Below are positions 20,295 through 20,665 of a stretch of 64,000 bases of DNA, piece by piece; the first letter of the stretch is position 1; the number at the start of each line of letters is the position of its first letter. This stretch comes from a virus (Duplodnaviria; Heunggongvirae; Uroviricota; Caudoviricetes). The DNA lies in the IMG/VR virus record IMGVR_UViG_3300028591_000088; one strand, given 5' to 3'. The notes beneath the pieces are model-generated. The model ran no database searches and was not told the DNA's origin. It was given only the letters and a program-made list of their open reading frames with translations. Position numbers and translations under genes: made by a program.

Positions 20295-20665
20295 GGGCCT
20301 GACTGGTTTTGATTACATTGGAAAGTAGATTACTCACTCAGACAAGAATGGAAAGACATTCAAAACAAATAAATGCTAAAGTAGTCGTAATGACTCCTCG
20401 TACTGTAGCTATTGCTGCGTAAGTGCCTGGCAAGAGAGGAGCCAGGGAACATAATCCTCTCACAACAAGTCTTCTTTTGAGGATTTTCTTTTTAAAGCCA
20501 TTATTAATATTCTGTGTCTATCGGAGATATAACTAAATAGACTGGTGGGATAGTTGACATCTAGTCAACCCTGTAGAAGGAAACTGCATAAAGAAAACCT
20601 ATGAGTGTAAGTTATGGTAATTGAGAATAAGGTGTAAGACTCGAGTTCGATTCTCGACAGGTCCA
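20295..20665 (+). ncRNA. ssrA: tmRNA (ssrA-like transfer-messenger RNA)
   Basis: The 5' end gggcctgac-tggttttgattac resembles the canonical GGGGCUGAUUCUGGAUUCGAC. The 3' end actcgagttcgattctcgacaggtcc-a is a tRNA-like T-arm plus acceptor, pairing with the 5' end (gggcctg/caggtcc). The internal reading frame 20375-20419, gct aaa gta gtc gta atg act cct cgt act gta gct att gct gcg TAA, encodes AKVVVMTPRTVAIAA* with the classic A-I-A-A C-terminus. Confidence 0.7.

Follow-up and report, generated by a model that had tools for sequence, protein, structure and literature searches.

A probably functional one-piece tmRNA gene with a long, atypical tag in the tRNA array of a large uncultured phage

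The stretch of DNA analyzed here, referred to as the window, comprises 64,000 nucleotides (nt) of the IMG/VR virus record IMGVR_UViG_3300028591_000088 (Caudoviricetes) and carries on its plus strand a gene for a transfer-messenger RNA (tmRNA). An initial annotation made from the sequence alone had placed a tmRNA at 20295–20665, and two gene finders agree: ARAGORN called a tmRNA of standard form at 20295–20666 (+) with the tag AKVVVMTPRTVAIAA* and a coding part at nt 81–128, and the Rfam model RF00023, which has a gathering score of 47 bits, matched 20295–20668 from its first to its last position (1–374 of 374) with 75.4 bits and an E value of 1.8e-27. The identification is supported by these gene finders, by covariation, by purifying selection on the tag and by the phage gene context. 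We regard the gene as genuine and evolutionarily maintained, and as likely to be functional; it is of the standard one-piece, intron-less kind and belongs to a large uncultured phage.

Several other readings of the region were rejected. The only open reading frame (ORF) spanning it is a trivial one of 41 amino acids (aa) with a GTG start on the minus strand, which disposes of a protein-coding reading. A permuted two-piece tmRNA is at odds with the standard form reported by ARAGORN and with an RF00023 match that is collinear from end to end, and an intron form of the window copy with its intact T-loop and with the lack of any RF00028 match in the window. A decoy consisting of the tRNA-like domain (TLD) only, of the type found in phage DS6A, was rejected on the grounds that a full and conserved mRNA-like domain is present.

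Comparative evidence comes from 17 distinct versions of the gene, the window's and 16 further ones, located on viral and metagenome contigs by means of the neighboring protein and a 17-mer common to the first two versions, followed by ARAGORN and nhmmer. Sixteen versions were aligned, the intron-split version L008 being left out. Where the flanking sequence of the relatives is long enough, homologous tRNA arrays mostly have the tmRNA in the same place. The features of the window gene, all on the plus strand, are the following:

20295–20665, +: whole tmRNA gene, from the 5' G1 to the discriminator A (ARAGORN and Rfam RF00023)
20295–20301, +: 5' strand of the acceptor stem, GGGCCUG, pairing with 20658–20664
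20311–20319, +: tandem G.A/A.G (nt 17–18) and 5' strand of helix 2a (nt 19–25), with partners at 20631–20639
20328–20340, +: 5' strands of helices 2b and 2c (GAUUACU, CACUCA), with partners at 20602–20607 and 20616–20622
20346–20361, +: hairpin GAAUG-GAAAGA-CAUUC (nt 52–67) at the usual position of pseudoknot 1 (direct reading, alignment)
20370–20371, +: U(-5)A(-4) ahead of the resume codon, the counterparts of the frame-setting U85/A86 of Escherichia coli; invariant in 16 of 16 sequences
20375–20422, +: tag frame, GCU resume codon (nt 81), 15 codons encoding AKVVVMTPRTVAIAA, UAA stop at 20420–20422
20426–20461, +: pseudoknot 2, with stem 1 formed by CCUGGC (20426–20431) and GCCAGG (20441–20446) (comparative)
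20434–20461, +: stem 2 of pseudoknot 2, formed by GAGAGGA (20434–20440) and UCCUCUC (20455–20461) (comparative)
20470–20483, +: weakly supported small hairpin UCUUC-UUUU-GAGGA, with wobble-type changes only and missing in several relatives
20507–20542, +: candidate pseudoknot 3, stem 1 at 20507–20514/20522–20530 and stem 2 GUCUAU (20516–20521)/AUAGAC (20537–20542)
20543–20598, +: pseudoknot 4 region, two hairpins GUUGAC/GUCAAC and UGUAG/CUGCA (single-sequence folds)
20602–20622, +: 3' strands of helices 2c and 2b (UGAGUG ... GGUAAUU) (alignment)
20631–20639, +: 3' strand of helix 2a and the G.A partners (alignment; matched changes between the window and its relative L005)
20641–20657, +: T-arm, stem UCGAG/CUCGA and loop UUCGAUU (direct reading, alignment)
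20658–20665, +: 3' strand of the acceptor stem, CAGGUCC (U70 at 20662), and discriminator A73 (20665) (direct reading, alignment)

What the initial annotation had described in the TLD was borne out: the 7-bp acceptor stem, the T-arm and the discriminator A can be read directly at these coordinates, and its G-U pair at position 3-70 is present in the window and invariant across the 16 aligned sequences. The same pair is found in the spliced exons of L008, the discriminator is always A, and G3 in the acceptor stem is the identity base for alanyl-tRNA synthetase (AlaRS). The T-stem is 100% paired in the alignment, with four of its five pairs changed on both sides. When the seven TLD types of the family are aligned in register, the acceptor and T stems are again 100% paired and 8 of 12 pairs are compensatory, with G1-C72, G2-C71 and G3-U70 invariant in all seven types.

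The CCA end is not encoded, the discriminator being followed by CUA, and the C at 20666 is its sole encoded base. All 21 of the 3' ends in question (those of the tmRNA and the 20 window tRNAs) have this layout of discriminator, C and then bases other than CA, and such uniformity suggests a common maturation route in which the CCA would be completed post-transcriptionally, with dependence on a CCA-adding enzyme. The 80 ORFs of 90 aa or more in the window yielded no such enzyme. Terminator-like hairpins at 19443–19458 and 21126–21142 flank a segment made up of the upstream ORF, the tmRNA and a 60-aa ORF, and these bracketing hairpins are consistent with a tmRNA that is co-transcribed with its neighbors and then processed.

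A scan of viral contigs with the T-arm and acceptor 3' strand returned a single tRNA-Ala and no tmRNA. This tRNA-Ala(UGC), at 156–227 of the apparently unrelated viral contig L001 (IMGVR_UViG_3300012923_000005), has the acceptor stem GGGCUUG/CAGGUCC and an encoded CCA, and its T-arm and acceptor 3' strand are identical to those of the window TLD over 23 nt. The match could be fortuitous or stem from sequence exchange between a tRNA-Ala and the TLD of a tmRNA. There is no tRNA-Ala in the array of the window itself.

The tag frame likewise agrees with the initial annotation, which had noted a short frame ending in A-I-A-A and TAA; it opens, with no start codon, at the GCT at 20375 and closes with the TAA at 20420–20422. 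Frames in the relatives were anchored on the conserved upstream ...UAAAU. Of the two E. coli nucleotides that correspond to the invariant U(-5)A(-4), A86 is the main determinant of frame choice (PMC2481249). The frame is open in all 16 aligned sequences, its indels are all multiples of three, and the C-terminus is invariably (I/V/A)AA followed by a stop. Two classes of tag can be recognized, AKVV(V/T/N)M(T/A)PR...A(I/V)AA with 15–19 aa and GE(NTN/IDF)TPRAKVVS(M/I)...YRAAA with 20–22 aa, and a divergent tag of 22 aa, AKEIKMNPFAARTAQVTLRVAA, occurs as well. Between close pairs of sequences, synonymous and non-synonymous changes in the tag stand at 4:0 (window and L019), 2:0 (window and L014), 3:0 (L013 and L046) and 4:1 (L015 and L044), which is the pattern expected of a peptide that is translated and selected, and points to purifying selection on the tag at the level of translation.

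The remainder of the RNA is also under structural constraint. When every column was compared with every other without prior bias, pseudoknot 2 stem 2 came out first and was joined in the top four by the T-stem, helix 2a and helix 2b, and these are the ones expected of a tmRNA. An explicit structure of 69 pairs imposed on the 16-sequence alignment is paired in 97.2% of cells, against 87.4% in column shuffles and 36–44% when the partners are slid by one to three columns. Twenty of these pairs change on both sides, and the covariation score of 0.283, as opposed to 0.113, was reached in none of 500 shuffles. Helix 2a is 98% paired with four of seven pairs compensatory, its closing pair covarying (GAC/GGA, GAU/AGA, GAA/UGA) and its G.A/A.G positions conserved; helices 2b and 2c are 95–100% paired and mostly invariant, and hence lend weak support. 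There is no anticodon arm, and it is the long helix 2, closed by the non-canonical G.A pairs, that joins the TLD to the other parts of the RNA.

The initial annotation had also remarked on pseudoknot-like helices, cctggcaagagaggagccagg, downstream of the tag, and these correspond to stem 1 of pseudoknot 2. The GAGAGGA loop of this stem pairs with UCCUCUC 15 nt downstream, giving a second stem that is 99% paired with six of its seven pairs changed on both sides (e.g., GUACGUA/UACGUAC and GUGGUGA/UCACCAC). Pseudoknot 2 is strongly supported by comparison and is the only one of the pseudoknots with positive comparative support.

These observations bear on the possibility that the RNA is a decoy, titrating host SmpB, AlaRS or elongation factor EF-Tu and shutting down host trans-translation with no tagging of its own, a role that has been proposed for the TLD-only molecule of mycobacteriophage DS6A. 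A TLD without a coding sequence, like that of DS6A, strongly inhibits tmRNA in E. coli (PMC4131195, PMC11915505), and an RNA from a phage with no SmpB of its own in the window must compete for that of the host. A TLD decoy would, however, have no need of helix 2 and pseudoknot 2, both maintained by compensatory changes. The RNA has a complete mRNA-like domain with conserved tag frame, stop codon and U(-5)A(-4), and the synonymous substitutions among close relatives are expected only if the tag is translated. We therefore regard an inhibitory role as very unlikely, and a tagging tmRNA as the better account of the gene.

Of the four pseudoknots for which the initial annotation suggested looking, pseudoknot 2 is present, pseudoknot 1 is absent with a hairpin at its position, pseudoknot 3 is paired and invariant, and the pseudoknot 4 region forms two hairpins. 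The candidate pseudoknot 3 is 100% paired, and it overlaps the 17-mer search word and so brings no independent support; it is invariant by construction because the relatives were found by an exact word inside it. The two hairpins of the pseudoknot 4 region are recovered by single-sequence folds in most relatives with differing stem sequences, and they covary. In the hairpin at nt 52–67, four relatives have jointly dropped one base from each strand (GAUG/CAUC), and three of these four have an additional inserted hairpin. This hairpin was considered as a pseudoknot 1 and rejected, its GAAAGA loop having no complement in the flanks and none in the all-against-all covariation scan. Pseudoknot 1 is thus replaced by a plain 5-bp hairpin. 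In sequence and structure, the gene has the features by which a standard tmRNA is defined, with the exception of a canonical pseudoknot 1.

Natural deletion variants occur in the family. The tmRNA of L043 (1189–1514) is without the entire pseudoknot 2, and those of L014 (3487–3828) and L016 (1329–1670) are without most of the pseudoknot 4 region, while the TLD, helix 2 and tag frame are intact in all three. By analogy with E. coli, these variants may reflect the dispensability of pseudoknots 2 and 4.

A number of points weigh against a functional, evolutionarily supported tmRNA and have to be set beside this evidence. Pseudoknot 1, the sole pseudoknot required for tagging in E. coli, is not present as a pseudoknot. 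In that species, a stable hairpin can nevertheless substitute for pseudoknot 1 with tagging kept, and pseudoknots 2–4 are dispensable; the number of pseudoknots moreover varies among accepted tmRNAs (PMC3968760). The anatomy of the phage RNA is therefore compatible with function, since E. coli tolerates the same kind of replacement. The exact 17-mer inside pseudoknot 3 biases the family sample to close kin, and kinship inflates the shuffle statistics. The minimum free energy of the whole RNA has a z-score of -1.71 and 6 of 100 shuffles fold as well, a value kept out of the evidence because the method does not model pseudoknots. A scan for sigma-70 promoters around the tmRNA gave 16 sites against 15.1 expected, no excess over chance. 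Lastly, a Pfam search of the 64-kb window, covering 80 ORFs of 90 aa or more, found no SmpB, and a tblastn search of the window with E. coli SmpB (an approximate query sequence) gave noise only. Because none was found in the window, function depends on a compatible host SmpB or on a phage SmpB encoded beyond the window; the SmpB and the CCA-adding enzyme used are probably those of the host.

The gene evolves in modules. L005 is nearly identical to the window over the upstream ORF and tmRNA nt 22–246, with a single difference in that part of the tmRNA, whereas the 3' half of the TLD and about 400 nt of downstream DNA have been replaced (compared stretches 20295–20315 and 20631–21075). The clustered changes at the 5' end are confined to the TLD and include nt 19–21, which pair with the altered nt 341–343. 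Over the family, TLD types are mixed and matched with tag classes. Taken together, the sequences indicate recombination, with selection holding the two TLD halves compatible.

The tmRNA begins 9 nt past the stop codon of an unannotated 269-aa ORF and is enclosed in an array of 20 tRNA genes (ARAGORN), all on the plus strand, between 5674 and 23635. ORFs of at least 200 aa all lie on one strand. Matches to PHROG and Pfam profiles include a Dda-like helicase, a DnaB-like helicase, a primase, a Sak4-like annealase, exonuclease VIII and an ATP-dependent ligase, and further NrdD, dUTPase, RNase H, a full sigma-70-family factor and several homing endonucleases. IMG/VR also lists related contigs and near-identical ones, among them a contig of 192 kb. 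The PHROG matches, the one-strand ORFs and the IMG/VR contigs mark what appears to be a bona fide phage genome around the tmRNA. The closest homologues of the helicase are in uncultured human-fecal phages (42% identity), followed by crAss-like phages of Bacteroides (~28%). Against 50,697 GenBank phage records, neither the tmRNA (blastn, distant mode) nor the flanking 20 kb (megablast) had a match.

Genes for tmRNA are frequent integration sites and fragments of them occur in prophages (PMC9004378), and within the 64-kb window we found no structural phage genes. It could accordingly be supposed that the gene is a passenger or in decay, namely a copy of a host ssrA or an attachment-site remnant without a phage role, or that the window is bacterial DNA. 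The gene is, however, complete, lies inside a tRNA array and does not adjoin an integrase, and its position is kept in contigs that have no more than 85% identity in the neighboring protein. Its distance from the sampled bacterial tmRNAs (at most 26 bits by nhmmer) and from every GenBank phage is large, its compensatory and synonymous changes are those of a maintained gene, and the viral setting, with PHROG matches, genes that all share one strand and IMG/VR contigs of up to 192 kb, argues against bacterial DNA. We consider a passenger highly improbable and retain the reading of a maintained phage tmRNA.

The tRNA array has further peculiarities. A tRNA-Asn(GUU) of 88 nt at 9669–9756 and a tRNA-Gln(UUG) of 91 nt at 22559–22649 have long base-paired variable arms that are class II-like; in bacteria, long variable arms are normally confined to the tRNAs for Leu, Ser and Tyr. 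Enlarged variable regions are found in a tRNA-Thr (83 nt, 12518–12600) and a tRNA-Pro (85 nt, 21328–21412). At 13399–13461, just upstream of a tRNA-Ile (13481–13554), Rfam reported a partial tRNA (37.5 bits, model positions 5–66) on which ARAGORN is silent, and which may be a degraded or unusual tRNA. Also inside the array, at 7189–9069, is a gene for a 626-aa protein with DUF2828, DUF7788 and Ro60-type vWA domains (PHROG 850, "RNA-binding protein"). Ro60-like proteins are usually partnered with Y-RNA-like RNAs, and no Y RNA was detected in the window at Rfam gathering thresholds. A full-length P-type cation-transporting ATPase of 817 aa, encoded at 3147–5600, is unusual cargo for a phage, as are two TerD-domain proteins, a TerB protein, an SPFH/Band 7 protein and the sigma-70-family factor elsewhere in the window.

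One relative differs in gene organization. In L008 (4229–5465; the same as L038; IMGVR_UViG_3300033463_000772, 28.8 kb) the tmRNA T-loop is split between GGCGGUU and CGAAUCCGCC by an insert of ~870 nt. Within it, Rfam recognizes the core of a group I intron at 4571–4818 (RF00028, 91 bits, E 1.7e-23), and the opposite strand has a 206-aa HNH-like ORF (4742–5362). Once joined, the exons restore the whole TLD, G3-U70 included. The intron lies after the second nucleotide of the T-loop, between UU and CGAAU, which is subsite 3. A non-exhaustive search of the literature turned up no phage described as having a tmRNA of intron form.

The host of the phage is probably of Bacteroidota type, a conclusion we hold with moderate confidence. 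When the TLD 5' motif GGGnnnGACUGGUUUUGA was compared with one genome per species, 80 tmRNA genes starting with it were found among the first 120 matches listed, of which 77 are labeled Bacteroidota and the other three are oddly labeled metagenome-assembled genomes with the same kind of tag. Nearly all of the 80 tags are of the GENNYALAA type, mostly of 9 aa, and the phage tag class that starts with GENTN (compare GENNYALAA and GENTYALAA) points in the same direction. A Shine–Dalgarno 4-mer core was found at -18 to -4 in 8.7% of 69 ORFs starting with ATG, against 15% at random ATGs. Such a near absence of Shine–Dalgarno motifs fits Bacteroidota and speaks against Firmicutes. The promoter motif TAnnTTTG, the -7 motif of Bacteroidota, gave no support for such a host, being present 76 times against 80 expected, and only once against 2.8 expected in combination with an upstream TTTG; the phage encodes its own sigma factor. 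Introns at T-loop subsite 3 of tmRNA have been reported only from the class Bacteroidia (PMC11915505), and the intron of L008 thus points to a host of Bacteroidota type. IMG 3300033463, the dataset from which this relative comes, is described as a cow or sheep rumen dataset (PMC12149495). A profile of the phage family scored at most 26 bits (nhmmer) against 120 bacterial loci, mostly flavobacterial tmRNAs, with the similarity mostly at the 3' part of the TLD, and on this basis a recent capture from any sampled bacterium was rejected. We infer that the phage tmRNA lineage is old and diverged.

The conserved determinants of the gene, taken with its identity, the constraint on its structure and on the translated tag, and its phage setting as documented above, suggest how charging, use of SmpB, tagging, proteolysis and ribosome recycling would proceed and how the phage might benefit. 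The tmRNA would be transcribed as part of the tRNA array around it, trimmed by the enzymes that also process the tRNAs and completed at its CCA end by a CCA-adding enzyme, and would then be charged with alanine by the host AlaRS through G3-U70 and A73. Together with EF-Tu and SmpB, the latter probably the host's, it would enter ribosomes stalled on broken mRNAs. The ribosome would switch to the internal frame set by U(-5)A(-4), add (A)AKVVVMTPRTVAIAA, stop at the UAA and be recycled, and the hydrophobic ...AIAA C-terminus would be expected to send the tagged product to host proteases. By the same logic that applies to its 20 tRNAs, a phage carrying a tmRNA may gain ribosomes that are kept available while host mRNA is degraded and while the synthesis or integrity of host stable RNAs is possibly compromised.

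It is conceivable that the tag does something more specific. A long, basic and hydrophobic tag (AKVV...TPR...AIAA) that has diverged from that of the host could give rescued polypeptides another fate, for instance by evading a host adaptor, by being degraded faster or more slowly or by being recognized by a phage factor, and the RNA may also out-compete the host tmRNA. The tags of the family measure 15–22 aa, share AKVV and (T/A)PR motifs and are under purifying selection, while Bacteroidota tmRNAs with the same TLD 5' motif mostly encode 9-aa tags of the GENNYALAA type and the commonest length of a bacterial tag is 10 aa (PMC11915505); one of the phage classes has a Bacteroidota-like GENTN start followed by a phage-specific insertion. 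Ordinary degradation is nevertheless the simplest expectation for a tag that has kept the C-terminal ...AA read by ClpX in E. coli (PMC3968760). Within the window, the tmRNA has no linked gene for a protease or adaptor of the phage, and Bacteroidota tags stand in for the presumed host tag. Specialized tagging is unlikely. About equally unlikely is the scenario in which the phage lineage has evolved a tag family of its own (15–22 aa, with AKVV and TPR motifs), derived by duplications and insertions from a GEN...AA scaffold resembling that of the host, together with a hairpin-simplified RNA. The tmRNA would in that case do more than back up the host system: as part of host takeover, it would divert the rescued polypeptides or win SmpB from the host tmRNA. 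Were this true, the interchangeable TLD modules would track differing variants of host AlaRS or SmpB.

The initial annotation had called a phage-borne tmRNA unusual, which overstates the case: tmRNAs, two-piece forms included, are present in 402 of 18,146 phage genomes (~2%) (PMC9004378). They are known from Bxz1-type mycobacteriophages and Bacillus phage G, with a TLD-only form in DS6A (PMC4131195), and from huge phages, some of which also have SmpB (PMC7162821). The present gene adds a well-supported lineage of novel sequence to this known kind and leaves the current view of phage biology unchanged. The family is, however, a compact natural experiment in tmRNA design, combining a hairpin for pseudoknot 1, losses of pseudoknots 2 and 4, variable tag length, TLD exchange and an intron, and its natural change of pseudoknot 1 to a hairpin mirrors an engineered E. 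coli variant. It would be a good system in which to test what a phage gains from its own tmRNA.

With the bacterial one-piece tmRNA of Bacteroidota type (RF00023), the phage RNA shares the G3-U70 and A73 of the TLD, the tandem G.A, helix 2, the UA motif, an internal tag frame ending in AA and at least one downstream pseudoknot, as well as the TLD 5' motif GGGnnnGACUGGUUUUGA and, in one tag class, the GENTN start. It differs in being phage encoded, in its weak similarity beyond the TLD (at most 26 bits), in a tag of 15–22 aa with AKVV and TPR as opposed to ~9 aa, in the 5-bp hairpin that takes the place of pseudoknot 1 and in having no smpB nearby. Like the tmRNAs of Bxz1-type phages, phage G and huge phages, it is a complete tmRNA that accompanies many tRNAs and translation-related functions, with the presumed role of maintaining translation during infection, but it has no detectable nucleotide similarity to any GenBank phage (50,697 records), its host lineage is different and probably of Bacteroidota type, and no SmpB was found in the window, in contrast to those huge phages that encode one. 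The two-piece tmRNAs of marine phages such as Melnitz offer a parallel in that phage ssrA is thought to support the hijacked translation machinery (PMC9004378), whereas the window gene is not permuted and has no associated riboswitch (Rfam). The TLD-only RNA of DS6A is likewise a tRNA-Ala-like domain of a phage that needs host SmpB (PMC4131195, PMC11915505); it is an inhibitor without a tag frame, in contrast to the window element with its full mRNA-like domain under purifying selection. The likeness to intron-form tmRNA genes, with a group I intron at T-loop subsite 3 (PMC11915505), is limited to L008, which is on a viral contig and has an HNH-like ORF, as opposed to the LAGLIDADG homing endonucleases reported (PMC11915505), and the window copy is intron-less. 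Within this known kind of phage gene, four details are unusual: the tag is long and atypical, a hairpin stands in for pseudoknot 1, the TLD is modular, and one sibling bears an intron.

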